From assembly GCA_019828565.1 (NCBI GenBank), contig JAHDYR010000003.1, forward strand, positions 495,409 to 559,408: a stretch of DNA of 64,000 nucleotides, in the 5' to 3' direction. The notes below the pieces were generated by a model, which did no database searches, was not told the origin of the DNA, and was given only the letters and a program-made list of their open reading frames with translations. Within the stretch, counting starts at the first letter, position 1. Every line of letters begins with the position of its first letter. Made by a program: the position numbers and the translations under genes. Shown here piece by piece: positions 9,863 to 34,438 of the stretch. The stretch is from Carpediemonas membranifera BICM (Eukaryota > Protista > Fornicata).

Positions 9863-11581
9863 ATGCTAGACTTGTTCACTTGGCTGGAAGAAGCCACTGA
9901 GTTCGAGAAGAAGGAGCTAATGACCAAGATCAATGCAGCTGCAAGCGCTAAAGGCAAATGCGACGTCCTTCGCGCGCTTTTGCTGCCTAGGCGCGATTTA
10001 CTCGCTACTGTGATCAAGGAACGTACGTTACTGAGCGAAATTGTTTACACAGGTGTTAATCTCAAGCGTATTGCCACGTTCTTCCGCCTCACGCGCCAGG
10101 AGACGGAAGATATGAAGAAGGACCTTAAGGCGCAGTTTATGGCGACGATGAAATTGAATGAGGGTGAAAGGGTCACAGGGGAACACAAGAAAACACTGAA
10201 GCAGGTCCTCGGCGGGGATACCTTCACGCACCTGTACGACGGCGAGGTGGAGAGCGCGCGTATTCGGGTGAAGAAGAGCATTCGTGAGGCTAGAATGAAG
10301 ACAAACGCTAGGCTTGAGTGTGAACTCGCGAAGGAGGAGGACGAGGACATCAGGGATTGTACTCGGGTTCAGATGATGAAGCTGGCCGATGAGGAAGACC
10401 GAAAGGAGTTGGAAAAGGAGATGGAATACACGCGCGAGTCCAAGTATGACGTGGTATGGGAGCGAGTGTACGATGAGATCTGCGGTACTCGTCGTGTGCG
10501 GGCCCGCAGGGATAACGCCCCCTGTCCCGGCGAGGATCACGCCGACCACGTGCTTCAGCGCTATCTCTGGGCCGACCAGATCGATACTCAGGCGCTTACT
10601 GGCGAGAAGACGTTGACCACGAGACTCCCTGCTGAAGCTCGAGTCGTACGTCGCGTGACAGCCAGTCTGATCTCTGCTCAGAAGACGGAGATCCAATCTC
10701 TCAAGGAGCAGGTCGAGCGGCTGAAGAAGCAGGTGACTGACGAGAGAAGAGACCACTTTCTTGAGTGCAGGCGTATCCATCATGAGCATGACGTTGGGTA
10801 CCTTGCTTCCTGCGATGTTTCGTTCGCCGCCAGCCCCATGCCGCCACAGTCTGGCACGCTCTCCAGGACTTCCTGCCCCCGACGCGCTACGAACGAGCCC
10901 GAGGCCTCCATGTCTGTGAAGCGCAAGGCCCTCTTCATCACGCCCGAGAAGGCCAGGCCTGAGGACTCAGAGGAGGAGACAGAGGAGGAGCAGGAGGAGG
11001 CGAAGGAGAAGAGGGGTGAGGCAGAAGAGGAGACGGTGAACACATGCGACGCCTGCATCCAGACTGAGCCGGAGACTCAGACTCGCATCACCTCTGAGGC
11101 CGCGGTGCAGACGTGCATCAACGTGGAGGCTCTCACGACTAACTGTACCGCGATTCATGTCAAGAGTGACGGCAACTGCGTTGCATATTGTCTCCAAGCC
11201 ATTGAGTTGGGTGGCCGAGTTGATGGCGACTTCGAAAAGTGGCAGCGTGGCCTCTGCCAGTCAGTGAAGGCCAAGTACTGGTCTAAGAAGAATGTCACGG
11301 AGCGTAGCCTGACAGATCCGGACTCCGGCTACTATAACTCGAACGCCATCCGAGTCTGGGCAAGGAAGCAGAAGCGGAACATCCTTGTTGTCCAGTCATA
11401 CGACGGATACAACGGCATGCAAGGCATCTCCGCCATCTTATACCTGTTTGATGGCACCACCATGCTTGCACCCGATGCAGACTTGTGGGGGTTGACAGAT
11501 AATTTCGCTATTGTCATCGAAGGCGATCCGGCTCACGCCACGCTGTACCAGAAGAAGTGCGAGGTCGTTGAGATTGAATAA
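9863..11581 (+). CDS. Coiled-coil/acidic protein with C-terminal OTU-like cysteine protease domain
   Basis: VKSDGNCVAYCL (OTU Cys loop), central GYYNSNAIRVWA, His in GDPAHATLY. Confidence 0.7.
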   Translation: MLDLFTWLEEATEFEKKELMTKINAAASAKGKCDVLRALLLPRRDLLATVIKERTLLSEIVYTGVNLKRIATFFRLTRQETEDMKKDLKAQFMATMKLNEGERVTGEHKKTLKQVLGGDTFTHLYDGEVESARIRVKKSIREARMKTNARLECELAKEEDEDIRDCTRVQMMKLADEEDRKELEKEMEYTRESKYDVVWERVYDEICGTRRVRARRDNAPCPGEDHADHVLQRYLWADQIDTQALTGEKTLTTRLPAEARVVRRVTASLISAQKTEIQSLKEQVERLKKQVTDERRDHFLECRRIHHEHDVGYLASCDVSFAASPMPPQSGTLSRTSCPRRATNEPEASMSVKRKALFITPEKARPEDSEEETEEEQEEAKEKRGEAEEETVNTCDACIQTEPETQTRITSEAAVQTCINVEALTTNCTAIHVKSDGNCVAYCLQAIELGGRVDGDFEKWQRGLCQSVKAKYWSKKNVTERSLTDPDSGYYNSNAIRVWARKQKRNILVVQSYDGYNGMQGISAILYLFDGTTMLAPDADLWGLTDNFAIVIEGDPAHATLYQKKCEVVEIE

Positions 11582-12425: not shown

Positions 12426-12899
12426 GCCTCCGTCTTGGCATTTGTTGAGGACAACACAGCTGTAAACGACAATAAGATGAAACAGAAGTAGCAAGCAATG
12501 TTTAATAACGTATGAACAGTCCTTTTGATGTTGTTTAGTGATTTTGTGCATTAACGACCGAGAACAGTGGAGTGCAACGCAGATGTTGGTTATTGATGGT
12601 AGATGGCGCGCTTTTGACGACAGCTGGTTGCTTTTGCAGTATAAAGAACCGCATAGCTGCCACTAGTTCCTTCCAATAATGCTTTCCCGCCATTTTGAGG
12701 TTGGAATGAAATTCCAAGCACCGTGCACTTTATGTAATTGCCCAATATCAACGCCACCCCCGCCCCCAGCGCCTCCACGCCCCACGCCAACGCCACCTCC
12801 GCCCCCCTGGCGCTCAGTTCAGGAGATGTCCGGTCGATAAGCCATAAACTGCACGGATCCACAAACGTGGATTGGCCTGAACGACAGCGCTGAGGCCCA
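12426..12899 (-). repeat. Module M, copy 4
   Basis: Reverse complement of M2. Confidence 0.95.
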
Positions 12900-14460
12900 G
12901 ACATGCACATATACATTCATTTATTCCTGTCTCGCTCTCTTGCCTGTCTGATCGCGACGTTTGACCCACTCAAATGCCTCATCTGTGAGGTAGACAGAGA
13001 CGTCGCGAGTATTCCCAGTCCTAACCTTCCGAATCAACGTTCGGCAAGGATCTTTGGGTGTCGTCGTTGAGGTACGACGGCAAGCCCACTCTGAGGTCTC
13101 GCATGAGCCCCCGCACACGATGCAACGTCCTGACAGGACAAGCGGGGGGTCATGCGTTCTGGCCATAGCTAGCTGGTCCACCTGGCTAGCAGTCAGTGTG
13201 CGGGACATGAGCGTACCGCGCGTCTTGCCCGTGTCTTCGGGCCTGGGCCTCGGCTCATCCAGGTCTCCGACGTCCGAAGTCGTCATCGTTGCCTGCTCCA
13301 AAGTGGTGGGCTCCGGCTGAGACCTGACACCTGGCAGCCTGAGCATGGTCTTACGGCCGCCGCTACGCAGCCTCTCAATCTCATCCTCAAGAATGCTGAC
13401 CTTCTTCGTCAGAGCATGATGTTCACTTGTCGCAACGAGCGACACTGGCGACTTAAGCAGCGCGATGAACGCCCTGACGTTATCGTGCAATGGAACCGAG
13501 AAGGCCTGGGCCAAGCTCTCGACCAGCTCCAGGACCTTGGGCAGGGTGTCGGGCTCAAGCTCATTGTGAGCTGCGCGGTTCCGGTACTCAACGAGATCAC
13601 GAATGATCTTGGCATGGGCTTTGTTGTACGCCGCTCGATTGGACATCTCACGAAGGATTCTTGATGAATCCACGTCCTGTTCGAGCTCTTTGCCGAGGAG
13701 GTCCTTCTCGGTGCTATTGGGCTTGCACCCGGGGTTAAATGCAGGCGAGGCCAAGATCTTCCGCATCCAAGGGACCATCATGGCGAGCAGCTGAAGAACT
13801 CGCGCATTATCGCCAAGGATGCGGAGCTGCTCATCGTTCCATGGTGAAATGAACAGGTGATGATCTTGTCGAGCGGATGATTGCCCTTTGAGAGGTGCTT
13901 GGCGATGCTTAGCGCGATATCGGTCCATCCACAACTGTGGATGACGAGCAATTTAAGGTAGGTGCCGCATCAGTCAATAACCCCGTGCTATCGTGCAATA
14001 GAACACAGTTAACACTGCTTTCCATGCGCAGCAACACAGCCTGTGGCGGAGAGACGCCCGGTATGGACGACACCAGGTGATCCACAAACGTGGATTGGCC
14101 AATTACGTCGGCCCCTCCCATCCCGCATCCCTCAGGATACGCAAGCACAAGCTCTCTCCCTGCAGCACCTCTCTGGCGCTCTCTAAAATCGTCGTATAGC
14201 GTAAACAGAATGTGCCGCATCAGTCATTCGTTCATTTTATTCCACTTATCACTCTTGGTCATCCTCCTCATCACTCACCTCCTCGCGGATACTGACATCA
14301 TCACGAGCCTCGTCATCCGCGAGTGTCAATGGCTCTGTAATAGCGCGGGCAGCGTTGGTATACTCACCGTTGAACTGTCGCTGGCCTCTCTGAATGCGAG
14401 GAAAGCAATTCACGCACACCGGAACACGACGAGAAGGACGCTTCAACATGTCAGTTCCAG
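12520..14460 (-). repeat. Right arm of inverted duplication of 228-2171
   Basis: Direct sequence comparison. Confidence 0.95.
12921..13928 (-). CDS. Swt1-like HEPN-domain protein, copy 2 (intact, ~335 aa)
   Basis: Uninterrupted ORF with the RNRAAH motif. Confidence 0.7.
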   Translation of the reverse strand: MDRYRAKHRQAPLKGQSSARQDHHLFISPWNDEQLRILGDNARVLQLLAMMVPWMRKILASPAFNPGCKPNSTEKDLLGKELEQDVDSSRILREMSNRAAYNKAHAKIIRDLVEYRNRAAHNELEPDTLPKVLELVESLAQAFSVPLHDNVRAFIALLKSPVSLVATSEHHALTKKVSILEDEIERLRSGGRKTMLRLPGVRSQPEPTTLEQATMTTSDVGDLDEPRPRPEDTGKTRGTLMSRTLTASQVDQLAMARTHDPPLVLSGRCIVCGGSCETSEWACRRTSTTTPKDPCRTLIRKVRTGNTRDVSVYLTDEAFEWVKRRDQTGKRARQE

Positions 14461-15063
14461 CCTCCGTCTTGGCATTTGTTGAGGACAACACAGCTGTAAA
14501 CGACAATAAGATGAAACAGAAGTAGCAAGCAATGTTTAATAACGTATGAACAGTCCTTTTGATGTTGTTTAGTGATTTTGTGCATTAACGACCGAGAACA
14601 GTGGAGTGCAACGCAGATGTTGGTTATTGATGGTAGATGGCGCGCTTTTGACGACAGCTGGTTGCTTTTGCAGTATAAAGAACCGCATAGCTGCCACTAG
14701 TTCCTTCCAATAATGCTTTCCCGCCATTTTGAGGTTGGAATGAAATTCCAAGCACCGTGCACTTTATGTAATTGCCCAATATCAACGCCACCCCCGCCCC
14801 CAGCGCCTCCACGCCCCACGCCAACGCCACCTCCGCCCCCTGGCGCTCAGTTCAGGAGATGTCCGGTCGATAAGCCATAAACTGCACGGATCCACAAACG
14901 TGGATTGGCCTGAACGACAGCGCTGAGGCCCAAACAGGTGGTGAGACATTAAAAAGACTCATTTGCAATCCATTTACTCAGTCCTCACCCTCTTACCACT
15001 TGTCTCGATCTCTGAATCATCCTCTATTGTGTTGTCCGCATGCTTCTGCTTTTCGGGCGACTC
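14460..15063 (-). repeat. Module M, copy 5, carrying the 3' tail of the 4495-5427 gene
   Basis: Reverse complement of ~5338-5470 joined to an M2-type module. Confidence 0.95.
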
Positions 15064-15208
15064 TACATGAGTCACCCTTGCAGTGGACGTGGTTGTGGAG
15101 CACCCCCAGTGTCTCCACGTCCGCCACCAGCGCCAGATCCGCCACCATGCCCTACATCAGCACATTTGTGTATTTACTTTGTAAATTTGTCCTATTGCTA
15201 TTGAAGCA

Positions 15209-15813
15209 ATGCGTTTCGAGAACTGGGAAGTCGTCATCACCTATGGGGCGGACAGTTCTCTTGGATCTATCATCACCGCTGTCTTAGACGAGTTTCTGCT
15301 CCGAAACCGCGACAAATCGTTTCGTTTAGACAGCAAGGAGCAGTGCTTGCGCATTCTCCGAGATTTCCTGACGTCATGTCCACTGAGGGTGACACATAGT
15401 GATGCTACGTTACGTAGTGCAGTCGTTAATGCTGATTGGAGCGCATTGATGAGGAATCACAGCACTGCTCATGTGACTGTTACGCGAGTCGACAACGAGG
15501 CGAAGACGAAGAGCCTATACACGGCCATGGCAATTATCTGTGCCGTCGAGTTAGGGAAGAATCGCTACGACCGACTCCGCCATGCATTTGTTTCAATGGC
15601 CTCCGACATGCTGTCTGGAGGGGGTGTATGGGTGGCAGTATACACCTACGGAACAGAGGGGCTCTGTCAAAAATGTCCGATTTAGAACGTCTTACTCTGG
15701 CACCATGTAACCCCCTTCCTGATGCACCTTTGAGCACGTGCTTGGCCTGCGATAATTACTTGGCGTCCCGTAAAGCCCAAAAATTAATCAAATCGTCATC
15801 AAATGCGAATTAA
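15209..15813 (+). CDS. Hypothetical protein, possibly with a frameshifted C-terminal C4 zinc ribbon
   Basis: 158 aa ORF ending CQKC; adjacent frame carries CLAC. Confidence 0.4.
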
Positions 15814-16941
15814 AGATGCTGATATTGCTCATGAAACGACTCTGCTGATCAGCTGGGACTCTACGCGGCGATATGGCATGGCAAGTCTCTACACTTTGGA
15901 GTCAATTCGGTCCCATGGTTCCTACCTTGACCCACGTTGTCTCGCGCGCGCGAGGACTCACTAAAAGGATATATCAACACTGGGAGCAGAAAAAAGGCAC
16001 GGCGAGATGCAGGCGCTGTTGCTGAGCTCATTTTCCGGATAAGACCCGTTTTTGTCACCTCAACCCATTCATATTGGCGGCTGTTGCTTCGTTTTTGATC
16101 AAATCAAATGGAAACCAAAACGAGATCCGGGAAACGAGGATGATTGGGAGAGATAGACACATCATAAGGTCTTTAATATAGTAATGCACCGTCAATGAGA
16201 AGTTCTTGGTTCCTGAAATGGATTATTGATCCCAAACGCTTTTCTTTGAGGATAACGCACTTATAGCGGTGATTTCCACACAATTCATCCAAATACTGAT
16301 CAAAACATCAGAACTGCAAGTAAAATGGGTATAGATCGTTTATCCACGGAGATATCAATTGCTCCCAATCCCAGCTTGCAAGAAAAAAAGTTAAGGGGCT
16401 GTATTGGGGCTTGCACTGATATCTCTATATATGCCGACACAGTCACTGGGCTGCCCATCACTGAACAGCTCTAGCCCAATACAAAAACTTGAGGGCTCGA
16501 AGTTTTGGCCTTCTCGGAAAAGGGTGGCGGAACGCTGCAACACTACAATGCTAATGGACAGAGGGGAGGAAGTGGTCCACTGGTATGTCCTATGGGTCGC
16601 TTCTTCCCCTCTGTCCATTTTTACACGATATCGATTTGCCGGATTTGACACATGTTGTGCGATCTTTAACTCCTCGCGTCCAACCACCTCTCCCAAACGA
16701 TCTGCAAGATCGACCAGCCCCTGGATCACTTGGGCCTGCCTCCGTGCCCGGCCTGTTGCGATCAATGATGGTGATTACTTGCAACGAACGCGATCACCGG
16801 AAATTACCTTACCTTACCTTACCTGCAGGTACCATGGGTGTTCGTTTTCGTCTCCAAACGCCATGGTGTAAGAGCATAAAGTGCATTTTCTGTTTACTGT
16901 GCCGTTGGGGATTGATGGCGCTGGCGTAGGGGTGCTGTGTG

Positions 16942-19036
16942 GGCGCCAGGGATGAGGCGCCAGGGATGAGGGCGCCAGGATGAGGCGCCAGGGATGAGGC
17001 GCCAGGGATGAGGCGCCAGGGATGAGGCGCCAGGATGAGGGCGCCAGGGATGAGGCGCCAGGGATGAGGCGCCAGGGATGAGGCGCCAGGGATGAGGCGC
17101 CAGGGATGAGGCGCCAGGATGAGGGCGCCAGGGATGAGGCGCCAGGGATGAGGCGCCAGGGATGAGGCGCCAGGGATGAGGCGCCAGGGATGAGGCGCCA
17201 GGGATGAGGCGCCAGGGATGAGGCGCCAGGATGAGGGCGCCAGGGATGAGGCGCCAGGGATGAGGCGCCAGGATGAGGGCGCCAGGGATGAGGGCGCCAG
17301 GGATGAGGCGCCAGGGATGAGGCGCCAGGGATGAGGCGCCAGGATGAGGGCGCCAGGGATGAGGCGCCAGGGATGAGGCGCCAGGGATGAGGCGCCAGGG
17401 ATGAGGGGAGCGCCAGGGATGAGGCGCCAGGGATGAGGGCGCCAGGGATGAGGCGCCAGGGATGAGGCGCCAGGGATGAGGGCGCCAGGGATGAGGCGCC
17501 AGGGATGAGGCGCCAGGGATGAGGCGCCAGGGATGAGGGCGCCAGGGATGAGGCGCCAGGGATGAGGGCGCCAGGGATGAGGCGCCAGGGATGAGGCGCC
17601 AGGGATGAGGCGCCAGGGATGAGGCGCCAGGGATGAGGCGCCAGGGATGAGGCGCCAGGGATGAGGCGCCAGGGATGAGGGGCGCCAGGGATGAGGCGCC
17701 AGGGATGAGGCGCCAGGGATGAGGGCGCCAGGGATGAGGCGCCAGGGATGAGGGCGCCAGGGATGAGGCGCCAGGGATGAGGCGCCAGGGATGAGGCGCC
17801 AGGGATGAGGCGCCAGGGATGAGGCGCCAGGGATGAGGCGCGCCAGGGATGAGGCGCCAGGGATGAGGCGCCAGGGATGAGGCGCCAGGGATGAGGCGCC
17901 AGGGATGAGGCGCCAGGGATGAGGCGCCAGGGATGAGGGCGCCAGGGATGAGGCGCCAGGGATGAGGCGCCAGGGATGAGGGCGCCAGGGATGAGGCGCC
18001 AGGGATGAGGCGCCAGGGATGAGGGCGCCAGGGATGAGGCGCCAGGGATGAGGAGCGCCAGGGATGAGGCGCCAGGGATGAGGCGCCAGGGATGAGGAGC
18101 GCCAGGGATGAGGCGCCAGGGATGAGGCGCCAGGGATGAGGCGCCAGGGATGAGGCGCCAGGATGAGGCGCCAGGGATGAGGCGCCAGGGATGAGGCGCC
18201 AGGGATGAGGCGCCAGGGATGAGGCGCCAGGGATGAGGCGCCAGGGATGAGGGCCAGGGATGAGGGATGAGGGATGAGGCGCCAGGGATGAGGGAAGCGC
18301 CAGGGATGAGGCGCCAGGGATGAGGGCAGGATGAGCGCCAGGGATGAGGCGCCAGGGATGAGGCGCCAGGGATGAGGCGCCAGGGATGAGGCGCCAGGGA
18401 TGAGGCGCCAGGGATGAGGCGCCAGGGATGAGGCGCCAGGGATGAGGCGCCAGGGATGAGGCGCCAGGGATGAGGCGCCAGGGATGAGCGCCAGGGATGA
18501 GGCGCCAGGGATGAGGCGCCAGGATGAGGCGCCAGGGATGAGGCGCCAGGGATGAGGCGCCAGGGATGAGGGCGCCAGGGATGAGGGCGCCAGGGATGAG
18601 GCGCCAGGGATGAGGCGCCAGGGATGAGGCGCCAGGGATGAGGCGCCAGGATGAGGCGCCAGGGATGAGGCGCCAGGGATGAGGCGCCAGGGATGAGGGC
18701 GCCAGGGATGAGGCGCCAGGGATGAGGCGCCAGGGATGAGGCGCCAGGGATGAGGCGCCAGGGATGAGGCGCCAGGGATGAGGCGCCAGGGATGAGGCGC
18801 CAGGGATGAGGCGCCAGGGATGAGGCGCCAGGGATGAGGCGCCAGGGATGAGGCGCCAGGGATGAGGCGCCAGGGATGAGGCGCCAGGGATGAGGCGCCA
18901 GGGATGAGGCGCCAGGGATGAGGGCGCCAGGGATGAGGGCGCCAGGGATGAGGCGCCAGGGATGAGGCGCCAGGGATGAGGCGCCAGGGATGAGGCGCCA
19001 GGGATGAGGCGCCAGGATGAGGGCGCCAGGGATGAG
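16942..19036 (+). repeat. Minisatellite (GGCGCCAGGGATGA)n, 14 bp unit, ~150 copies
   Basis: Directly visible; only ~6 units in homologous blocks at ~25752-25836 and ~28439-28523. Confidence 0.98.
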
Positions 19037-19049
19037 GAGTACAGTATTT

Positions 19050-19390
19050 GAACCCCGAAAACGCCATATTACCAGCACCAATGAGCTTCATCAACGAAGA
19101 TGCGCTCACTGGTGCCGGTTATGGCGTTTTCGGGGTTCGTCGATCATTCTGCTCCCAAATCTGCACCTGTATTTTCGTGAGCATGCCCGGGAGCTGGGCC
19201 AGACGAGTGGTGCCACAGGGACTAAGCTCCGCTGCTCAGCCTCTGCCAGGCGACACTCGTCTGAATTCTGCACGAAAAAATTCAGACGACGAATGATGGG
19301 CAAAGGGCCGCGAAAACGCTGAAGTACCAGCGCAAGTAGAGCGGTTTGCAATAAAATAGCTTACTTGCGCTGGTGCTGGCGTTTTCGGGG
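19050..19390. other. Nested inverted repeats (dyad-symmetry core of a large imperfect palindrome)
   Basis: Four CCCGAAAACGC-type boxes in alternating orientation; ATCATTC/GAATGAT, TTTTCGTG/CACGAAAA and CAGACGAGTG/CACTCGTCTG nested around ~19230. Confidence 0.85.
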
Positions 19391-19401
19391 CCCTGAATTG
19401 C

Positions 19402-19597
19402 CCCGGGCGCTCTCCCGGGCTTCTCTCTCCCGGGCTCCTCTCTCCCGGGCTCCTCTCCCCCGGGCTCCTCTCCCCCGGGCTCCTCTCCCCCGGGCTCCTC
19501 TCTCCCGGGCGCTCTCCCGGGCTCCTCTCCCCCGGGCTCCTCTCTCCCGGGCGCTCTCCCGGGCTCCTCTCTCCCGGGCTCTATCCTCCGGGGCTCC
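19402..19597 (-). repeat. Minisatellite (CCCGGGCTCCTCTCT)n, ~13 copies
   Basis: Directly visible; reverse complement (GAGGAGCCCGGG) resembles the 14-mer (GAGGCGCCAGGG). Confidence 0.9.
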
Positions 19598-19689
19598 TGT
19601 CCCCAGCGCTGTTTCCCAGGCGCTCTGCTCTCTCCAGCGTCCTCACTCGTAAATGTACGTTGCTGTCTTGTCTGCTTGATCTGATTTCA

Positions 19690-19950
19690 TTTAGTGTGCA
19701 CTTTAGGGGATAGTTTCATTGCAACGCCAAAATGGCGAGTTCTGGTTGTAGCAATGATCTGATGCGCGGAATGTACTAGAAAACATTGCAATTACAACGC
19801 AAAGCAGCGAAAAGCGGAGAAATCAACATCAATAACAACATCAACACCAAAAGAACAGTATCCCAAAGAATTGTGGGCGTTGCTGCGCCAAAGAGCAATA
19901 AATGACCACAAAGCATTCGCTTATGCACAATTAGCTGCCAGAAAGAACAC
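19690..19950 (+). repeat. Diverged M-family module (O)
   Basis: GTGCACTTTA, TTTCATTGCAACGCCAAAATGGCG and CATCAATAACAACATC match M landmarks in order. Confidence 0.6.
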
Positions 19951-20093
19951 TACACCGTTACTTTGGATCATCCCAGTTCGCCGGAGATGACGCAGGTCCA
20001 GAACGCTGCCTTGGAGGGCTGGTGAAGCGGTTGTGTAGCGCTTACTCGCCTGGCCTTTGGGGCTCTCTCAACATCCTTCCAGACTACTGCATT

Positions 20094-20537
20094 GTCATTC
20101 ACCGGAGGAGCAGGCCAGAGTCACTTGCCATCTGGCGCATCATGAGGAGATATTGGAATGTGATGATGTGTTTATTGACTAAATGAGCTGGAATTAGGCG
20201 GGTTTGATGTTGCTTACATGCTCTGTGGCATGCCTGATGTCCAAAGATGTATTTTGGCACAGTGATGTTGTTTAGTGTGCTCATTGCTGACCGCATAGTT
20301 ATCTGACTTCAATGTGTCGTGTTGATGCCAAGAAATCGATGGTAGCTCGCACGTTTGAGGTAGTTGCTTGTTGCATCGATGCAACGCACTTTAAGGATTA
20401 ACCACCTGCACCCCATAGCCGTTTCCTAAGGCCAGATACGGTCCTCTGTAGCGTATATACACGCGTGAATTGGGACTAGATGGGACTAGATGCAGTGTTG
20501 TGGCATGCCCGGTCTAGCTGAATCCACAAATGTGGAT
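20094..20537 (-). repeat. Diverged M-family module (R); further copies at ~25096-25509 and ~27833-28196
   Basis: On the minus strand: ATCCAC-N4-GTGGAT (20522-20537), TAAAGTGC, ACCTCAAA, CTATGCGG, CACTAAACAACATCA. Confidence 0.8.
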
Positions 20538-20640
20538 CGGCTCGGGCTGCCATATAGGTGGCCTGCTCTGGACTTATGGCTGGAAATACAGTTGGCAGGT
20601 AGTTGACTCGTACATGCTCATATGGACAACCGACGGCCAT

Positions 20641-22029
20641 TTACTTCTGGTGCTTTTCCTGCTCTCTCTTCTCCATCAGGTCGTCATACTCGGCCCTCGT
20701 CAGCCTCACAGTTGTCATCCCGGCATCACGGATGTGCTCAAAGGCCTCAACGGGCAGCTTCGGCATCCCGTCGTCGCTGTCGCTGCTGCTGCCCAAGTCT
20801 GACTCGCTCTCGTGATAGCGGCGAAGGCGAATGCGTCTGCTGGGCTCCCTGGTCTTCATAGAGTCATAGAGCGGAGCGAGCCCACTTCCATTGGTCCCGC
20901 TACGGACACCCTCATCGGTATCTCTCTCAGACATATCACACTCAACCTGTTGTGACTGAACAAATGACAGGTTGTCGACGAGGCTATCCTCGGCATCGCT
21001 GTCTGAACTCTCCTCATCCTCCCACTCTCCTTCCAGCATCTCCAACCCGGCCTCATCGTCAGACTCGCCCTCCACCGCGGTCTCCGGCATCTCTGCCTCG
21101 CCAGCTGTCTCGTCAAACAGCGCCTCATCGTCAGACTCCCCCTCCCCCGTGTCGCCCCCCTCGGGCTTACGCTGGTCGTGGAGTTGGACCATCCTCATCC
21201 TGAGCTTTTTGTAAAGCCAGTCATCGAGCGTCGGCGGCACCAGGTCGGCAGAGCTTCGGATCTCCGGGTTGAGATCGAGGATCGTTGGGCGTCGCGTGGT
21301 CGTTAAGTGACTGGACGCCAACTGGCGCCTGAACTGCTCATCGGTCAGGCTGATGCGCTTGTCCTTAATGACCTTACGAACCTTGGTCGGATCCCTGGGC
21401 CTGCCAGTCCGTCTCTGTGTCTCAATCACCCGCTTCTTGAGCTGATTGAGATCGACATGCACAGTGGGCGCATAGCGAAGCTGGTTAACACTCAGCCCGA
21501 CCGACTTGAGAGCCTGCGAGAAGGTGCTAGGCATCACAGCGGACATCGCGGATGGTGCCCCGGTGAATAGCAACCAGTCAGCGAGTTCCGGGGGAATCTG
21601 GAGCTCGCTCACATCAATATCGCGGGCTGATGTGGCAGTCATGCCTGTGTGGCTGATGATAAGAGCCAGCGCATTGTAGGGGAAGACTAGTCGGACAATA
21701 GCTTCCGATGCGACAGGCTCAAACTGCCCAAGCGGCTTGACATTGTCTCTGCCGGAGTTTCGGAATGAGTTGACGGCACTGAGAGTGACAGCAGCGGTTG
21801 CCTTGCTCAATGATGCAGCAAAACCGGGCACAAGCGATCTAACCTCCTCGGACCGGATCACGGAGAGCGCTTCGTCCTCGGTACTCCCTCGCTCACGTTG
21901 TACGAATTGAACGAACCGCGAAAGGTTGTTTGCGGCCGCTTTCCGGGAAGATTTCTTGCTGATGGTGCACAACCAAGCATTCTTCACGTCTTGAATGCTT
22001 GTTTCCATCTCCCGCGGGCTTCCTTCCAT
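20641..22029 (-). CDS. Catalytically dead tyrosine-recombinase-fold protein 2 (462 aa) with GRP motif and acidic tail
   Basis: NLSRFVQF...SKATAAVTLSAVNSFRN core-binding pattern; ALALIISHTGMT; VNQLRYA; LASSHLTTTRRP. Confidence 0.65.
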   Translation of the reverse strand: MEGSPREMETSIQDVKNAWLCTISKKSSRKAAANNLSRFVQFVQRERGSTEDEALSVIRSEEVRSLVPGFAASLSKATAAVTLSAVNSFRNSGRDNVKPLGQFEPVASEAIVRLVFPYNALALIISHTGMTATSARDIDVSELQIPPELADWLLFTGAPSAMSAVMPSTFSQALKSVGLSVNQLRYAPTVHVDLNQLKKRVIETQRRTGRPRDPTKVRKVIKDKRISLTDEQFRRQLASSHLTTTRRPTILDLNPEIRSSADLVPPTLDDWLYKKLRMRMVQLHDQRKPEGGDTGEGESDDEALFDETAGEAEMPETAVEGESDDEAGLEMLEGEWEDEESSDSDAEDSLVDNLSFVQSQQVECDMSERDTDEGVRSGTNGSGLAPLYDSMKTREPSRRIRLRRYHESESDLGSSSDSDDGMPKLPVEAFEHIRDAGMTTVRLTRAEYDDLMEKREQEKHQK

Positions 22030-22030
22030 C

Positions 22031-22360
22031 GATATACGGATTTCAGACTTTCGTCATGCACAAAAATTCGAATCTCTCCAAATGCCCAAAACAGTGGTCA
22101 AACCGTGTTCAGGGGTACAATAGAGTGCCATAGGCACGTTCTTGCATTTCAAAATATTCTAGAGGTCGTTCATAAATTCTCAGATGGCCAACAGTACGAA
22201 AGTCTGAAATCCATTTATCATGAGACCCGACAAATTTGAAATCCATTTATCGGGTGGATACATCACTGTAGAGGGTATTCATGGATATAGGTGCCTTTTC
22301 GGTGCCGAGGGGAGTCAACATTTGAGGTCGTGCAGGCAGAAAGTCTGAAATCCGTATATC
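22031..22360. promoter_or_regulatory. Triplet of cognate sites upstream of pseudo-recombinase 2
   Basis: 22031-22052 is the perfect reverse complement of 22339-22360 (GAAAGTCTGAAATCCGTATATC); further copy at ~22198-22219. Confidence 0.75.
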
Positions 22361-22486
22361 TCATCACTGCTTATAGATCCTGGCAGACAACGCCTTCTTG
22401 GCAACGCCTGAGGTGTAAGGATTCGCTTGCCTCTGTGTTGTCGCATCAGCTTCGCTGAAAACGGGTGAACTGACCCGCGCATTCGC

Positions 22487-22980
22487 GCACTTTATGCTCG
22501 CAACGAGACCGAAATGACGAACTGAAGAATAGGAAGAATACTGGCGGCTTTAACGATACAGGCATGCACATATCACTAAGAAACATCAGTAAGCGAGCGC
22601 AGAGCATCATTAAAGCAACAATTATCCCTAAACAACATCAACAACTATAAGTCCATCAGGACCATATGATATGAACTATAAATGGAGCACTGATCAGTAT
22701 AGATGATTTGAGAGTACCAGGCATGGCCAGAATACCGCAATACTCGCCCGTTGATCCACGTGACCTCCATCTTGGTCGGTATCCAGAGAACGCCCGTCAG
22801 ACGCTTGCAACGGAACATTTAGGGGGTGCATCCTAAATGGGTCCAGATTTGAGGCACCCTTGGTCTGACATGCCATGACCGAGCACTCTAGGGGCCTCCA
22901 CAGTGCGTCCCGAGGTACGTTAGAGCACCACAGACCTTCCCCCAAAAGCTGACTCCTGGACCCCTTGGCCGGAGCTCGCC
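22487..22980 (+). repeat. Module N, copy 2
   Basis: Similar to 9092-9588. Confidence 0.85.
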
Positions 22981-23265
22981 CGAAGCGTGCCTCGGCTTGA
23001 ACTAACGGCAAGAGAGCATAAAATCAGCCCTTTCGAACCGTGTTTTATGCTCTGCTGCCGTTATAGAATTATTCAAAGGGCCCTCTCTTTGCGCTTTTTT
23101 TCTGGTTCGTGGGACGAAGTAGGGACGGACAAAAAAAGCACATACGGAAGGTATTGGAGGTACTGAGGCCGCCTAGGTACATAGTTGCCATGTGGATGGT
23201 TTCAGTTTATTACTTTTGGCACTCTATGTCCATTTTTTTATGCTCTCTTGCTGATAGTGCCGAAC

Positions 23266-24980
23266 ATGGACTTGCTAAAGTGGATTGAGAGCGCTAGCAA
23301 GGAACAGTACGATGCGATATTGGCTGCATACACCAAGGCAACCACCAATCATGCCAAATGTGCTGTCCTTCGCGCGGTTTTGCTGGATGAACGGAAACTG
23401 CTCGATCTAGTCATCAGGAAGCGTTTGTAGTCATAGCAATGCTTATATAGGAATCAACCTGAACCATATCACCACGAAATTCCGCCTCACGAAGGACGAG
23501 AAGGAGGAGCTCCATGATAAGTTGAAGAAGCAGTTTATGGCACTCGCCGGACCAAGAAGTTCCAAGAAGCTCGGCGCGCTGGCGAAGTGGGTTGACGACA
23601 ACCAGGCTGATATCGTGTATAGCCAGGGAGAAGCGCAAGGCGCGTAAGGCCATTATTGAGGCCATTGACGCCGAGGAGAAGGACAAGGGCAAGGGCAAGG
23701 CCGAGAGCGCTAAGAAAGAACCCGTCGACGATGAGAGTGGCGTGGACAGTGGTGAAGAGAGCGGCGTCGACGATTCTGAGTTGTGCGACAGTGAGAGTGA
23801 GGTGGACTTTGACAACGAGTCCGACGATGAGATTAGAGAACGCGCGATCAAGCGCCGGCGCGAGAGAAAGATCGCCCAGAAGCTCAAGGAGTGGGAGGAC
23901 AATAACGCTCGCAACTACGTCCTGTGGCATAGAGTCCAGAAGGAGGTGCACGGCGAGCTTCGCATTCGCGCCTCTCGAGAGTCAGCTTCGGTTGCTGGGG
24001 ACAACCACGTCGACGTCCAGTTCGACAGATACCTTCGCGTATCCAAGCTGCTCGAAATGAAGGACTGGATTCACAAAGACCTCCCATCTCTTCCGATGGA
24101 GGCACGAGTGCTCCATCACAAGGCGCAGAAGAGAGTACTCGAGCTGGAGGAGACCGTCACGAGGCTGCTGCAAGACGTGGGGTACGCAGCTGACATCTCC
24201 ATGGGTGCCAGCCCGACACCCGCGCCGTTTCGCCGCGACCTACCCCAGTCGGGCACACACCAAGCACGAACGAGTACCCCCCGCCGTACGGGGAAGAGCG
24301 ACACAATCCACATGAAGCGCAAGGCCCTCATGACAATCCCTCAGAAGATCGCTGATGTCGATAGCAACTCAGAGGAGTCAGACGAGGAGGAGGTGGTGAC
24401 AGAGGAGAGGAAGGGTGAGTCACATGAGGAGGACGTGACCAAATGCGACGCCTGCATCCAGACTGAGCCGGAGACTCAGACTCGCATCACCTCTGAGGCC
24501 GCGGTGCAGACGTGCATCAACGCGGAGGCTCTCACGGCTGGCTGTACCGCGATTCATGTCAAGAGTGACGGCAACTGCGTTGCATATTGTCTCCAAGCCA
24601 TTGAGTTGGGTGGCAGAGTTGATGGCGACTTCGAAAAGTGGCAGCGTGGCCTCTGCCAGTCAGTGAAGGCCAAGTACTGGTCTAAGAAGAATGTCACGGA
24701 GCGTAGCCTGACAGATCCGGACTCCGGCTACTATAACTCGAACGCCATCCGAGTCTGGGCGAGGAAGCAGAAGCGGAACATCCTTGTTGTCCAGTCATAC
24801 GACGGATACAACGGCATGCAAGGCATCTCCGCCATCTTATACCTGTTTGATGGCACCACCATGCTTGCACCCGATGCAGGAATGTGGGGGTTGACAGATA
24901 ATTTCGCTATTGTCATCGAAGGCGATCCGGCTCACGCCACGCTGTACCAGAAGAAGTGCGACGTCGTTGAGATTGAATAA
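23266..24980 (+). CDS. OTU-like protease paralog 3 (frameshifted at ~23420-23600)
   Basis: N-terminus MDLLKWIE..KCAVLRAVLL aligns with the 9863 protein; OTU domain nearly identical. Confidence 0.65.
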
Positions 24981-26122
24981 AGATTTGGATATGCCCGTGT
25001 AGCCAGCGGTTCATGACCTGCAGCAGACATTTGGACGTACAGCGGGATACCACATCAATTAGGTCACTTGCGGGCTAAGATTGTCGTTGTCGATCGTCAT
25101 TCACCGGAGGAGCAGGCCAGAGTCACTTGCCATCTGGCGCATCATGAGGAGATATTGGAATGTGATGATGTGTTTATTGACTAAATGAGCTGGAATTAGG
25201 CGGGTTTGATGTTGCTTACATGCTCTGTGGCATGCCTGATGTCCAAAGATGTATTTTGGCACAGTGATGTTGTTTAGTGTGCTCATTGCTGACCGCATAG
25301 TTATCTGACTTCAATGTGTCGTGTTGATGCCAAGAAATCGATGGTAGCTCGCACGTTTGAGGTAGTTGCTTGTTGCATCGATGCAACGCACTTTAAGGAT
25401 TAACCACCTGCACCCCATAGCCGTTTCCTAAGGCCAGATACGGTCCTCTGTAGCGTATATACACGCGTGAATTGGGACTAGATGGGACTAGATGCAGTGT
25501 TGTGGCATGATCTGCAAGATCGACCAGCCCCTGGATCACTTGGGCCTGTCTCCGTGCCCGGCCTGTTGCGATCAATGATGGTGATTACTTGCAACGAACG
25601 CGATCACCGGAAATTACCTTACCTTACCTTACCTGCAGGTACCATGGGTGTTCGTTTTCGTCTCCAAACGCCATGGTGTAAGAGCATAAAGTGCATTTTC
25701 TGTTTACTGTGCCGTTGGGGATTGATGGCGCTGGCGTAGGGGTGCTGTGTGGGCGCCAGGGATGAGGCGCCAGGGATGAGGGCGCCAGGATGAGGCGCCA
25801 GGGATGAGGCGCCAGGATGAGGGCGCCAGGGATGAGGAGTACAGTATTTGAACCCCGAAAACGCCATATTACCAGCACCAATGAGCTTCATCAACGAAGA
25901 TGCGCTCACTGGTGCCGGTTATGGCGTTTTCGGGGTTCGTCGATCATTCTGCTCCCAAATCTGCACCTGTATTTTCGTGAGCATGCCCGGGAGCTGGGCC
26001 AGACGAGTGGTGCCACAGGGACTAAGCTCCGCTGCTCAGCCTCTGCCAGGCGACACTCGTCTGAATTCTGCACGAAAAAATTCAGACGACGAATGATGGG
26101 CAAAGGGCCGCGAAAACGCTGA

Positions 26123-27027
26123 TATCAGTCTCACAGCCTCCCTTCATGCATATAGTCTGCTTCTCAGCGTTTGAACAGAGCTCACAGACGGTGAACGTCT
26201 TGTCATTGTTGTTCTTGTCCTTGCGAGTGACCGTCGAAAAGCTATCATCCTCTGTGTCGGAACTAGCCCCGCGACACCTCACAGATTCTGTGGACGAACC
26301 TGTGGCAGAAGTCGCACTCTAAGACAGTTTCGTCTGTTCTACCGTCAACGAAGAAGAGGCCACGTAAGTCTGCGCAGTAAGGGCAACACTTGCGGAGGCT
26401 GTTCTTCCACATCTTGGCAGTGCTGCCCATGAAGTATTCCGCGTCGGAAGCGCCTGGGTTCGTGCTCCTAAACTGCTCAGTCATGTGGTTCATGGCCTCA
26501 ATCATCTCAGCGACGTTGGCACCGTTGACTGACGAAGCTTGCATTGCACGCGTGGAGTCAACGGACATAGTGGGCTGCTCAGCGGTCTGAACAGTGGGGT
26601 GGGGGGTGGGGACGGCAGGATTGCGGCGCGGCTGGCACACCCGGAAGGCTCTTTGGGAGCTGTCGAGCTTGGAATTTCGCAAATGATCAATTTCAGCGTC
26701 AGTGAGGGTTACAAGCTGGCTGAGTCCGGCTATCAATGCGGCACGCCCTGTATCTGTCGCGTGAATTCCTTGGTAGATGCCCTTCGTGTTAGGAGAGAGT
26801 TTGCGGCCAGCAAGGTTCTCGATAGCCTTGGGTACTGACCTCATGAAGTCCTACTTGCGCGGCATGCGCTCTAGAATAGTTTTTGGGAGGATTGCAAGGA
26901 TGGCATCCGCGATGGAGCGACAATCGCATTTCGTGCTTCTCTCTTCCCAACGATAGCATGTTGCGATGATTGTGTGCACAATATCACGCACAGTATCTCT
27001 TGAAAGCCGCTCCTGGTCTTCTACCAT
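26123..27027 (-). pseudogene. PHD-finger gene, copy 1 (in-frame TAG at 26851-26853, frameshift near 26268, 3' end joined to a repeat block)
   Basis: CPYC...LECDFCHRFVHRIC...CELC matches C4HC3. Upstream ATG 27027 is in frame. Confidence 0.65.
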
Positions 27028-27082
27028 ACTGCCCCCCTTTTGTGGGGGTGTAAAAAAAACTGAGTGCAGTTTTAAGTTGGAA

Positions 27083-27298
27083 ATGGAATCCTACAGGTAT
27101 AGAGACTATTACGAAGAGATAGGAACCGTTATAGCTGCAATTGATGCAATATTAGCGCATCCAGGACTGTGGGCGGTAGCAGAGCGTGCTGGAATGGATA
27201 GATTAGCAAGAGCGAAGGACTTACTCAATATAGAGCAAGAAAGGGCCAAATGCGGGATTCCGCCATCAAGTTCAGAAGAGTACAGTGATTCACAGTAA
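27083..27298 (+). CDS. Small hypothetical protein (71 aa), divergent from the PHD gene; duplicate at ~29769-29984
   Basis: ATG ORF starting ~55 bp from the divergent PHD ATG. Confidence 0.35.
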   Translation: MESYRYRDYYEEIGTVIAAIDAILAHPGLWAVAERAGMDRLARAKDLLNIEQERAKCGIPPSSSEEYSDSQ

Positions 27299-28809
27299 AC
27301 CGTAGCGATCTATTGAGTTATATTCAGTTCTGGCCATGTTCGGCTTTTCCGGAATGTCAAAAATTTGACACGTCCATTTCTCCAAATTGCTGATTGCCAA
27401 CGCTAGACCAGACATGCCAGGCTGTAGTACACGTGCTATACTACAACGTGGTGGTTCTGGTTTGCCGTTGGCAATCAGCAATTTCGAGAACAGACAAACT
27501 TCTTTTGCGATTTTTGCAACTTCTGGAGCATATATCATTTGGTACAGACCCAGCCACGCAATAAAAACGCATAGCGTGGCTTAACATGGTCGGAACTATC
27601 CTAAAAAAGTTTGCGGTAAATATTGAGTAAATATTTAATATAGATCTCGAGATTTAACGTCCCTTAGGTAGCCCTTGGATGCAAACATCCGCCCAGTAAA
27701 TTTTGCTGTACAGCTCTAGCCCAATACAAAAATATGAGGGCTCGAAGTTTTGGCCTTCTCAGAAAAAGGTGGCAGTATACTGCTACTTTTCTTTGCTTGA
27801 GTAGCTGTATTACACCCCCTCCAGACAGCATGGAGGAGATATTGGAATGTGATGATGTGTTTATTGACTAAATGAGCTGGAATTAGGCGGGTTTGATGTT
27901 GCTTACATGCTCTGTGGCATGCCTGATGTCCAAAGATGTATTTTGGCACAGTGATGTTGTTTAGTGTGCTCATTGCTGACCGCATAGTTATCTGACTTCA
28001 ATGTGTCGTGTTGATGCCAAGAAATCGATGGTAGCTCGCACGTTTGAGGTAGTTGCTTGTTGCATCGATGCAACGCACTTTAAGGATTAACCACCTGCAC
28101 CCCATAGCCGTTTCCTAAGGCCAGATACGGTCCTCTGTAGCGTATATACACGCGTGAATTGGGACTAGATGGGACTAGATGCAGTGTTGTGGCATGATCT
28201 GCAAGATCGACCAGCCCCTGGATCACTTGGGCCTGTCTCCGTGCCCGGCCTGTTGCGATCAATGATGGTGATTACTTGCAACGAACGCGATCACCGGAAA
28301 TTACCTTACCTTACCTTACCTGCAGGTACCATGGGTGTTCGTTTTCGTCTCCAAACGCCATGGTGTAAGAGCATAAAGTGCATTTTCTGTTTACTGTGCC
28401 GTTGGGGATTGATGGCGCTGGCGTAGGGGTGCTGTGTGGGCGCCAGGGATGAGGCGCCAGGGATGAGGGCGCCAGGATGAGGCGCCAGGGATGAGGCGCC
28501 AGGATGAGGGCGCCAGGGATGAGGAGTACAGTATTTGAACCCCGAAAACGCCATATTACCAGCACCAATGAGCTTCATCAACGAAGATGCGCTCACTGGT
28601 GCCGGTTATGGCGTTTTCGGGGTTCGTCGATCATTCTGCTCCCAAATCTGCACCTGTATTTTCGTGAGCATGCCCGGGAGCTGGGCCAGACGAGTGGTGC
28701 CACAGGGACTAAGCTCCGCTGCTCAGCCTCTGCCAGGCGACACTCGTCTGAATTCTGCACGAAAAAATTCAGACGACGAATGATGGGCAAGGGCCGCGAA
28801 AACGCTGAT

Positions 28810-29714
28810 ATCAGTCTCACAGCCTCCCCTTCATGCATATAGTCTGCTTCTCAGCGTTTGAACAGAGCTCACAGACGGTGAACGTCTTGTCATTGTTGTT
28901 CTTGTCCTTGCGAGTGACCGTCGAAAAGCTATCATCCTCTGTGTCGGAACTAGCCCCGCGACACCTCACAGATTCTGTGGACGAACCTGTGGCAGAAGTC
29001 GCACTCTAAGACAGTTTCGTCTGTTCTACCGTCAACGAAGAAGAGGCCACGTAAGTCTGCGCAGTAAGGGCAACACTTGCGGAGGCTGTTCTTCCACATC
29101 TTGGCAGTGCTGCCCATGAAGTATTCCGCGTCGGAAGCGCCTGGGTTCGTGTTCCTAAACTGCTCAGTCATGTGGTTCATGGCCTCAATCATCTCAGCGA
29201 CGTTGGCACCGTTGACTGACGAAGCTTGCATTGCACGCGTGGAGTCAACGGACATAGTGGGCTGCTCAGCGGTCTGAACAGTGGGGTGGGGGGTGGGGAC
29301 GGCAGGATTGCGGCGCGGCTGGCACACCCGGAAGGCTCTTTGGGAGCTGTCGAGCTTGGAATTTCGCAAATGATCAATTTCAGCGTCAGTGAGGGTTACA
29401 AGCTGGCTGAGTCCGGCTATCAATGCGGCACGCCCTGTATCTGTCGCGTGAATTCCTTGGTAGATGCCCTTCGTGTTAGGAGAGAGTTTGCGGCCAGCAA
29501 GGTTCTCGATAGCCTTGGGTACTGACCTCATGAAGTCCTACTTGCGCGGCATGCGCTCTAGAATAGTTTTTGGGAGGATTGCAAGGATGGCATCCGCGAT
29601 GGAGCGACAATCGCATTTCGTGCTTCTCTCTTCCCAACGATAGCATGTTGCGATGATTGTGTGCACAATATCACGCACAGTATCTCTTGAAAGCCGCTCC
29701 TGGTCTTCTACCAT
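28810..29714 (-). pseudogene. PHD-finger gene, copy 2 (same lesions)
   Basis: Tandem duplicate of 26123-27027. Confidence 0.65.
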
Positions 29715-30419
29715 ACTGCCCCCCTTTTGTGGGGGTGTAAAAAAACTGAGTGCAGTTTTAAGTTGGAAATGGAATCCTACAGGTATAGAGACTATTACGA
29801 AGAGATAGGAACCGTTATAGCTGCAATTGATGCAATATTAGCGCATCCAGGACTGTGGGCGGTAGCAGAGCGTGCTGGAATGGATAGATTAGCAAGAGCG
29901 AAGGACTTACTCAATATAGAGCAAGAAAGGGCCAAATGCGGGATTCCGCCATCAAGTTCAGAAGAGTACAGTGATTCACAGTAAACCGTAGCGATCTATT
30001 GAGTTATATTCAGTTCTGGCCATGTTCGGCTTTTCCGGAATGTCAAAAATTTGACACGTCCATTTCTCCAAATTGCTGATTGCCAACGCTAGACCAGACA
30101 TGCCAGGCTGTAGTACACGTGCTATACTACAACGTGGTGGTTCTGGTTTGCCGTTGGCAATCAGCAATTTCGAGAACAGACAAACTTCTTTTGCGATTTT
30201 TGCAACTTCTGGAGCATATATCATTTGGTACAGACCCAGCCACGCAATAAAAACGCATAGCGTGGCTTAACATGGTCGGAACTATCCTAAAAAAGTTGGC
30301 GGTAAATATTGAGTAAATATTTAATATAGATCTCGAGATTTAACGTCCCTTAGGTAGCCCTTGGATGCAAACATCCGCCCAGTAAATTTTGCTGTACAGC
30401 TCTAGCCCAATACAAAAAT

Positions 30420-32515
30420 ATGAGGGCTCGAAGTTTTGGCCTTCTCAGAAAAAGGTGGCAGTATACTGCTACTTTTCTTTGCTTGAGTAGCTGTATTACA
30501 CCCCCTCCAGACAGCATGGACATGGGAGTTCGCCTTGGAATTCACACTCCACCGGTGGTAGACAGTCTCCAGAATCTTGGGTATGACCTGCTGTCCATCC
30601 CAGCCATACGATCTGTTATATCAGACCCAACACTGATCGAGGACGTCAACGCGTTCACTCCTGAGCAGCCCGATGTCTCTGGGCGTGATGGGGTGTCTAA
30701 CCAAGAGCTTCAATGTCAAGCAGGAGCCGGTTTCACGCGTAGCGTGGAAGTCGCGGAGGCTTTTTACGTCCTATATGACCCAACCACCCACACCGACCTG
30801 CAAGAGACTCTCGATGAACACGACTGCCTCTTCGCTCACCACTTCGAGAAGATATCGGGGGAGTCACGGCTATACATTTCGCATGATGATCCATCCAAGC
30901 TGCCGGAGATTCAGAGATTATGCCGGAACATGGGCATCATTCCGCGTGGAACAAAGAAATCTCACCGGATGGTGATCAGCGCTCTGTCCTATGACCCTGT
31001 CGCCCAGATTAAGTTCATGCTGAAGTTCCCCGACCGAGTTCAGCGCGATATCAAGTCAAGCAAGTTCGTTCAATCCGTCACTATTAACCCGGAGAGCCGA
31101 CAGGAGGCTTATGGTCTTGAGATGCTCCTATGGTTTGATGGATATCGGGCCGACTGTACGGCGGTCAAATATCGCATAATTGATCGCGAGGGAGCAGCCC
31201 TACCACAGAAGATTACCCCACCCATGACGCTTCTTACATTTCAGGGCACAGAGAAGCTCATTCCTTCGTTCTTTGATGATGTACAGCGGCTAATGAACAA
31301 GCTCATTGGTATCCCCTTCGCATGTGGTGACAGTTCGTTGCTCCCACGCAGCCGTGTTGTCATCAGCCTGCTCGGGATCTGCGGCGATCACAAAGCGTTG
31401 CAGATTGTTAGTGGCGTCAAGCGGGGACGATACTACCGCTCTCCATTCTCCTCCCTACACATGGGAAAGGTCGCAAGTGACCCGTTTGCCAATCGTTGCG
31501 ATCGCTGGACAATCGCAGATAGCATCTTATGAAGGACTTCTGGACGCTGCTTGGCCTTGTCAAGGTTCAACACGCTGGTCAGAACGTGCAAACACTTGAG
31601 CAGATTGAAAAGCTGTTCACGCGGACAACTGGCTGCAACGAGCAGAGCTGGAACAGACGAAAGCTCGCGACACTAGTCAACGAGCACCTTGAGGAGTTTG
31701 ACCAGTCACTCCAGCCCTTCATACTCCTTACAGCCAAGTTACAGGCGTTGTATTACTCCTCTGACCACGTGACACACCAGACAATCGCTTTCCATCACGC
31801 GGCGTCCTTTTCTACGTTCATCATGTTCCATGTCTTGACTTTGTTCTATGACCTTCCATCGAGTCGCTCCTCGGTTGCTACGACGCTCAATGATGGTCTC
31901 AGACTGACTTACTCTCCCAAGTTTACCGGCTCGCTATATCTGAATGCAGTGGTGTCAGTTCTGCCCAAGGTTCACTCGAAACTGCGGCTTCCGATGTTCT
32001 ATTTGCTTGAGGAGTACTTCGAACGTGATTTCCTCATCAATGCCCAGTTGCGAGTGGACAAGCATCGATCTTGGGTTCTCGGCTTCCTGGCTCAGAAGAC
32101 AATGGTCGGTCGTGTCCTTGCTCACTACACCCGCCGTGGCTCATCGAGAAAGCATGGTATGGTGTTGCCGATTGCAAGGCAGTGTAAGTCTGTCACATTC
32201 TGCTCGTGTCTATTTGATGCCGACCGGTGTGCCGCCTGGAGAAATCGTCTATTAACTAAGGTACCCAACTGGGATAGGGAGGCGAGCCAACAGTCGCTGA
32301 ATGCGCTGTTTAGTGGATGGGTCAAGGGTATCTGTGAGGAGCCGGAGGAGATCCGGGAACTCATCACTGTTGACGAGACAGCCAAGACGATTTGTGTAAG
32401 GACGGCGGACAGTGGTCTGGATGAGACTCTCTGCATCTGCAATCTGTGCAACAGTGAGCAGCGAGCGGAGGAGCTGATGAGGAGGACTGGGCACAATCTT
32501 CGCCCGAGAAGATAG
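30420..32515 (+). CDS. Putative DDE transposase, RAG1/Transib/Chapaev-like (one frameshift at ~31529)
   Basis: MLLWFDG (D1), LLTFQGTE, GICGDHKALQIVSG..YY (D2; cf. RAG1 GTGYDEKLVREVEGL), YLNAVVSVLP...LLEEYFE (E). Adding one A joins the two ORFs as ...SILMKDFW. Confidence 0.5.
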
Positions 32516-34295: not shown

Positions 34296-34420
34296 TGTGG
34301 CAGTGTGCCAATCAAATATTTTATTTGATTGGCGATTCGATCCGCCATTCCGGTCGACACTGTTGTGTCGACTTCTCTTTGACTAAAGCACCAAGTTGTT
34401 TTTCCGTCCTCTCGAGCACA
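34296..34420 (+). repeat. 5' LTR
   Basis: Matches 38628-38752. Confidence 0.97.
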
Positions 34421-34438
34421 GTATTAATACTCTCCATC

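Follow-up and report, generated by a model that had tools for sequence, protein, structure and literature searches.

The region described here lies in a 64,000-nucleotide stretch of the genome of Carpediemonas membranifera BICM, a metamonad of free-living habit (NCBI GenBank assembly GCA_019828565.1, contig JAHDYR010000003.1, positions 495,409 to 559,408 of the forward strand), hereafter the window, in which two mirrored G-rich minisatellites enclose a hairpin-rich core. An original prediction made from the letters alone had compared these repeats with viral replication origins, junctions of element termini and centromeres. They form an internal module of a 14.9-kb DNA transposon-like insertion (15607-30518), the carrier element, which splits a predicted transposase gene. 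Very probably, the module belongs to the non-coding interior of this insertion, itself a likely non-autonomous cut-and-paste transposon bounded by terminal inverted repeats (TIRs).

A carrier element inside a predicted transposase gene

The 5' part of the split gene (15209-15606, plus strand) encodes residues 1-132, and the 3' part (30519-32515, plus strand) resumes at residue 133, with a further break between residues 484 and 525. An intact 854-residue reference, P0024, exists in several copies elsewhere, and judged against it the GA at 15605-15606 and again at 30519-30520 is a target duplication left by one insertion. The left TIR, CATGCTGTCTGGAGGGGGTGTA (15607-15628, plus strand), and the outer right TIR (30497-30518, minus strand, followed by the duplicated GA) match at 22 of 22 bp and give the element CATG..CATG (CA..TG) termini. 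Within these limits, a basic unit (15607-27832) is followed by a tandem copy of its final 2.7 kb, the segments 25146-27834 and 27833-30520 being 99.8% identical. At the duplication junction, the end of the first right TIR (27811-27832, minus strand) abuts an internal site just ahead of a GA, and this joining of a second right end before GA suggests recent transposase action. No further copies of the 22-bp TIR were found in the window, and no transposase was seen among the open reading frames (ORFs) of the insert. The module is internal. The true termini at 15607 and 27832/30518 share no sequence with the outer ends of the arrays; of the proposed head-to-head junction of element termini, the link to a mobile element stands and the junction does not.

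The split gene is predicted to encode a DDE transposase of a multicopy, CMCT-like (CACTA/Plavaka/RAG1-like) type. Atlas look-alikes of residues 300-780, by features (0.91-0.94) and by predicted structure (template-modelling score by query 0.40-0.61), belong to clusters of the Transposase_21, Plavaka and RAG1 types (family shares by features of 11-19% for Transposase_21 and Plavaka) and serve as leads only. The single-sequence structure model has a predicted local distance difference test (pLDDT) value of 34. A search of 1.84 billion representatives returned 17 relatives, and in a 13-sequence alignment (P0024 and 12 relatives) D339, D422, H521 and C562 are invariant and E687, E688 and E691 nearly so. 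The CMCT clade, as delimited in PMC12730594, comprises EnSpm/CACTA, Mirage, Chapaev, Transib, Plavaka, ESTA as well as Lanisha, with 5'-CA..TG-3' termini, TIRs and target duplications of 2-5 bp given as hallmarks. The carrier element resembles the elements described there in its CA..TG termini, its 2-bp target duplication, its cargo genes and its association with a DDE transposase of Plavaka/RAG1-like predicted fold, and it resembles PlavakaB in that its termini start with CAT. It differs from them in its cargo, a recombinase-fold and an OTU-like gene, and in its internal mirrored minisatellite-hairpin module. In Chondrus crispus, EnSpm elements enlarged to 16-20 kb and containing 4-5 ORFs, as presented in PMC6431247, are alike in size class and multi-ORF content.

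Arrays, hairpins and dispersed motifs of the module

The left array (16942-19037, plus strand) contains, as assembled and parsed into tandem repeats, 148 units of a G-rich 14-mer, GGCGCCAGGGATGA, with this main unit accounting for 106 of 150 parsed pieces. Its mirror, which begins at 19402 or 19410 and ends at 19598, comprises about 13 units of 12-15 bp (a 15-mer) whose minus strand is G-rich. That the two arrays are related and on opposite strands, as predicted, is borne out by the alignment of the left-array end with the reverse complement of the right array (score 99 against a shuffle mean of 38, equalled in 0 of 300 shuffles). The predicted central dyad was likewise confirmed: the core (19038-19409, about 365 bp between the arrays) is dyad-symmetric beyond all 300 shuffles and folds better than each of 100 (z -12.8). 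The larger claim, a 2.8-kb imperfect palindrome, survives for arrays and core (0/300 shuffles) and fails outside them, where mirror symmetry of the outer flanks is unclear (local alignment score reached by 98 of 300 shuffles, global by 5 of 300). The arms measure 2,096 bp on the left and about 200 bp on the right, so a foldback over the full length is impossible; the layout is mirrored, its arms are very unequal, and it does not amount to a palindrome of 2.8 kb. Long ORFs running through the left array (760 aa) were considered as genes and rejected as read-throughs of the repeat without support.

Converging G-rich strands, as in these two arrays, are the layout of telomere fusions. The 14-mer might accordingly be the telomere repeat, and the locus a place where two ends have fused or else a telomeric tract of the interstitial kind, a reading in keeping with the abundance of the repeat in sequencing-run contigs and with the unusual 10-bp telomere repeat reported for a related metamonad in PMC11316075. 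However, the array units differ from each other and are separated by the structured core instead of meeting in a direct head-to-head join of one repeat, and the arrays lie inside a TIR element in which 6-unit versions recur that share flanks and end variants with them, making this reading very improbable. No telomere motif of C. membranifera was found in the literature searched. Short (CCTTA)n runs occur at 16805-16822 and 39006; these presumably resemble diplomonad telomere-type repeats and are a candidate for the real telomere motif.

The core is made up of two homologous hairpins of about 90 bp, H1 (19050-19138, 89 bp; z -10.5, 0/200 shuffles) and its diverged homologue H2 (19304-19394; z -11.0), on either side of a weaker centre with a 13-7-13 dyad. 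Folding of 19195-19295 is no better than that of shuffled sequences (17 of 200 as good), and a weak central stem predicted at 19200-19263 competes with the dyad. The dyad itself is an inverted repeat with 12 of 13 positions matching and the geometry of a tyrosine-recombinase site (19257-19289), 1.4 kb from the recombinase-fold gene described below; it is one of two distinct sites of this type in the window, and 1 of 10 shuffles contained any. The alternative hairpin predicted at this place has both its arms (19257-19267 and 19279-19289) and begins one base earlier than had been proposed, while the predicted two pairs of CCCGAAAACGC boxes proved exact in three of four cases, the box at 19309 carrying one mismatch.

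Between H1 and H2, 5 of 28 compared stem pairs are altered on both sides and one is broken, a pattern that fits either selection on the stem or arm-to-arm conversion. Eight of the nine strong hairpins of the window fall inside the carrier element, and three shuffles yielded none; further long hairpins of the element lie at 16553-16619, 23003-23063, 27378-27490 and 30064-30176. A reading of the hairpins as RNA structures was rejected, the strand bias of G.T over A.C pairs (HA 4:0, H1 0:2, H2 2:0, HD 4:1, HC 1:1, centre 1:1) being too weak for such a call. The Rfam scan gave no family at gathering score, with three microRNA-like matches far below it; a transfer RNA search found none, and bacterial promoter and terminator scans stayed at chance level.

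The motif TAAAGTGCA occurs at 16877 (plus strand) and at 19697-19705 (minus strand), where the original prediction had placed a mirrored pair. Both positions and strands are correct; the pair does not mark termini, because the window holds 12 copies (chance mean 0.21) in 6-7 non-redundant contexts. In 7 of 7 such contexts a C is kept at position -2, which defines the extended motif CNTAAAGTGCR (left instance 16875-16885, plus strand), likely a protein-binding site and not a terminus, as judged from its conservation. The same C, two bases outside, ruled out an interpretation of TAAAGTGCA as a TA duplication followed by a 7-bp TIR. A diverged copy of a repeat of about 480 bp (19684-19913, plus strand; 0/300 shuffles) overlaps the right TAAAGTGCA, and the mirror position in the left flank gave no match to it (114/300 shuffles). 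This 480-bp module, composed of a G-rich tract and TAAAGTGCA, is found at 1787-2171, 3596-4125, 5328-5853, 12426-12903 and 14460-15076, each time downstream of an ORF and oriented alike although the ORFs differ, as a common 3' end or the boundary of a cassette would be; another diverged copy lies at about 20220-20420 (minus strand). A 1.9-kb inverted duplication (228-2171 and 12520-14460, 99.3%) carries an ORF with weak HEPN-family matches (E 0.01-0.09).

Partial copies of the mirrored module, consisting of left flank, a 6-unit array, H1 and dyad and lacking H2 and the right array, are present at 25509-26122 (plus strand) and, more than 99% identical, at 28196-28808, so that arrays of 6 and of 148 units stand in one element. 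The variant map of the short array, aaDaCB, equals the two ends of the 148-unit array, and the difference between them therefore lies in the array middle, by expansion or contraction. An assembly artefact is unlikely as the source of the layout, because the end variants are common to three copies and the duplication junction coincides with a TIR end. At 25509 and 28196, the end of a 16699-20507 block meets its own start (20507/16699) with 1-bp microhomology, as in a circle or tandem array. Outside the assembly, a depth-2 contig of run X5, which may contain errors, matches H2 with five differences and continues into a different C-rich repeat, hinting at diverged copies. A metagenome scan for two array units gave one match, to a short repeat that ends a bacterial contig and shows no further similarity, and a scan of prokaryote genomes for a hairpin motif gave three, none extending past 11-14 bp.

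Foldback elements (FB, Tetris, Galileo), as characterised in PMC4079207, likewise have inverted arms, variable numbers of tandem repeats and a non-coding middle and are a source of satellite arrays; the arms here differ in being internal and strongly diverged, without their own target duplication or mirrored flanking domain. Among 306,525 boundary pairs around the module, the best combined a TIR of 5-7 bp with a target duplication of 2-4 bp, as expected by chance, and the module is therefore foldback-like in layout only. Derivation of satellites from transposons is documented in PMC7320549. The module could be a neutral foldback-like relic within the same transposon, its symmetry maintained by arm-to-arm conversion and its length increased by slippage. 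Array lengths from 6 to 148 units, the loss of H2 and the right array from partial copies, the lack of any higher-order pattern among the array variants (matched or surpassed in 183 of 300 shuffles) and the negative Rfam result agree with such a relic, whereas the clustering of strong hairpins in the carrier element, the ratio of doubly altered to broken stem pairs and the enrichment of TAAAGTGCA do not. We consider a neutral relic rather unlikely.

Cargo genes and their families

The first cargo gene (20641-22029, minus strand) encodes a protein of 462 residues that ends in an acidic tail and is predicted to have the core-binding fold of tyrosine recombinases. It is 98% identical to a C. membranifera protein, and all eight of its sequence matches bear that species name. 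The model of its first 105 residues is good (pLDDT 80-93 over residues 11-90). Compared with 48,161 chains, this N-terminal domain had 11 integrases or recombinases, by title, among its 16 top matches, mostly core-binding domains; the best VIA Z was 8.3, with a root-mean-square deviation (rmsd) of 2.5-3.0 and 85-91 residues aligned, Ndc10 ranked ninth (Z 6.9, rmsd 3.0, 85 aligned), and the Atlas score for the recombinase fold was 0.95. At what we take to be the positions of the tyrosine-recombinase catalytic boxes, R185 alone is retained; H241 and Y273 show conservation but odd spacing, in a domain modelled mostly at pLDDT below 50. To judge from these residues, the protein is likely devoid of catalytic activity and, since only R185 of the catalytic positions is retained, likely binds DNA without cutting it.

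The second cargo gene (23526-24980, plus strand) has a D-G-N-C ... H motif and is presumably OTU-like, with no Pfam OTU match. The recombinase-fold family numbers 21 listed proteins on 13 contigs, including four loci on one 906-kb contig. With locus numbers as a proxy for physical adjacency, an OTU-like gene occupies the next locus number for 7 of 20 named recombinase-fold loci, and, of 15 named transposase-family loci, 7 are no more than two numbers away from a member of either family (neighbourhoods looked up for 10 of 17 relatives). A recombinase-fold and OTU-like pair is also present upstream of the interrupted transposase (7796-11581). An outer element (5962-11581 and 15209-32515) comprises genes for a kinase, a recombinase-fold protein, an OTU-like protein and a transposase; a search for its ends did not find them.

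Intron-free ORFs, among them those for the recombinase-fold and OTU-like proteins, together with a GC content of 0.48-0.52 against 0.61 and the combination of repeats with a dyad, could also suggest that a DNA virus has integrated and that this is its origin or terminus (of oriP, hr or herpes a-sequence type); the original prediction had noted a resemblance to viral origins. That resemblance found no support: no hallmark gene, capsid and polymerase families included, was detected among the window ORFs scanned (34 with Pfam, 14 with PHROGs), the viral contigs and phage records searched gave no match, and the ends are of transposon type. Like telomere fusion, a viral origin is unlikely, and we regard an integrated virus as extremely improbable.

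Other mobile sequences of the window include a Ty3/gypsy-type retrotransposon (34296-38752) with identical 125-bp long terminal repeats, lying within an integrase ORF that starts near 33533, and, where the host region of 61% GC borders, a reverse transcriptase ORF (43004-44209, minus strand; Pfam RVT_1) that apparently belongs to a non-LTR element.

A proposed transposon platform and its possible host roles

Composite transposons uniting a DDE transposase with a tyrosine recombinase are known from Euplotes (Tec1/Tec2) and Fusarium (MarCry-1_FO), as recounted in PMC3212892. The family described here resembles them in pairing, within a TIR family, a DDE transposase with a recombinase-fold gene and in having an internal site, with arms of 11-13 bp and spacers of 6-8 bp there and a 13-7-13 arrangement with one mismatch here (PMC3212892). 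It differs in that its DDE transposase is of another superfamily, its recombinase likely lacks the catalytic tetrad R-H-R-Y and none of three rearrangement junctions falls at the site (PMC3212892). On balance, we think it probable that the module is the interior of a transposon and acts as a platform on which proteins encoded by the element dock or exert regulation; the docking role by itself is putative, and we propose it tentatively.

A plausible history would begin with an ancient head-to-head duplication of a unit that comprised the motif, a G-rich repeat and a hairpin, after which the arms diverged, followed by growth of the left array in its middle through slippage or unequal exchange. 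The element would be mobilised in trans by a related CMCT-like transposase. Its recombinase-fold protein may bind the 13-7-13 dyad or CNTAAAGTGCR without cutting, these sites being relic-like counterparts of the resolution sites that composite DDE plus recombinase transposons have in their interior, and the arrays may be transcribed at some level.

Several observations weigh against this interpretation. No intact autonomous element with the same TIR was found, which leaves the pairing of transposase and TIR inferred, and complete insertions with a target duplication number just one here. In the transposase, the P0024 family has no CxxC in the stretch where CMCT proteins have their C(2)C motif, M-H-x-S-H gives H(2)H instead of H(3-4)H, and Pfam and PDB sequence searches returned no transposase match; these are differences from the CMCT transposases set out in PMC12730594, and because of the absent C(2)C and the lack of a Pfam or PDB sequence match we call the gene CMCT-like without filing it as a member. 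In the recombinase-fold protein, a Z of 8.3 is middling for a helical domain, and with Foldseek nothing matched at E <= 0.001. The 13-7-13 dyad was picked out post hoc, all three rearrangement junctions (16699/20507, 19322/26122 and 20091/25093) lie away from it, and the second site of this type is a perfect 13-6-13 inverted repeat (2451-2482) inside an unrelated ORF (2209-2922, minus strand). By eye, we take this ORF to be SET-domain-like; it has no Pfam match. Paired changes in the hairpins can come from arm-to-arm conversion without function. Contigs of run X1 track ORF spans, and in them the 14-mer repeat is abundant with high summed depth, which hints at array transcription; X1 is RNA by guess, and its contigs carry neither strand nor level.

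The host invites a further reading. According to the gene surveys in PMC8516963, Carpediemonas has no ORC, no Cdc6 and few kinetochore subunits (the Ndc80 complex is absent), with a CenpA candidate, and replication driven by RNA:DNA hybrids has been proposed for it (PMC8516963). The supplements of PMC8516963, one file excepted, make no mention of transposons, satellites or tandem repeats. Such a host could have co-opted the module in either of two ways: R-loops arising as the G-rich arrays are transcribed would make it a starting point for replication, or binding of the recombinase-fold protein would make it a centromere-like platform. The missing ORC, Cdc6 and most kinetochore subunits and the proposed hybrid route (PMC8516963) favour this idea, as do the GC skew of the left array (+0.41) and the presence of Ndc10 among the fold matches, Cbf2/Ndc10 being derived from a Crypton recombinase (PMC3212892). 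Yet the element that contains the module is mobile and is itself nested within another transposon's gene, its carrier family has four loci on a single 906-kb contig, and Ndc10 ranks level with or below ordinary integrases; we judge co-option improbable. Little probability also attaches to a broader conjecture, in which modules scattered by transposons would serve Carpediemonas to start replication or to attach chromosomes, with transcribed G-rich arrays forming R-loops at the hairpin core and the recombinase-fold protein reading the dyad; this would parallel the gain of Ndc10 by yeast from a Crypton. If true, co-option as an origin or centromere would be important.

Taken together, these results replace the initial guess of an origin or centromere with a defined mobile element and point to giant CMCT-like transposons of a free-living metamonad that apparently make up a family, of which no earlier description was found in the literature searched. 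The family combines a Pfam-dark DDE transposase, a recombinase-fold protein and an OTU-like gene. In a host without a known mechanism for origins or for building kinetochores, a multicopy, strand-skewed and structured module with a candidate binding protein offers a concrete target.

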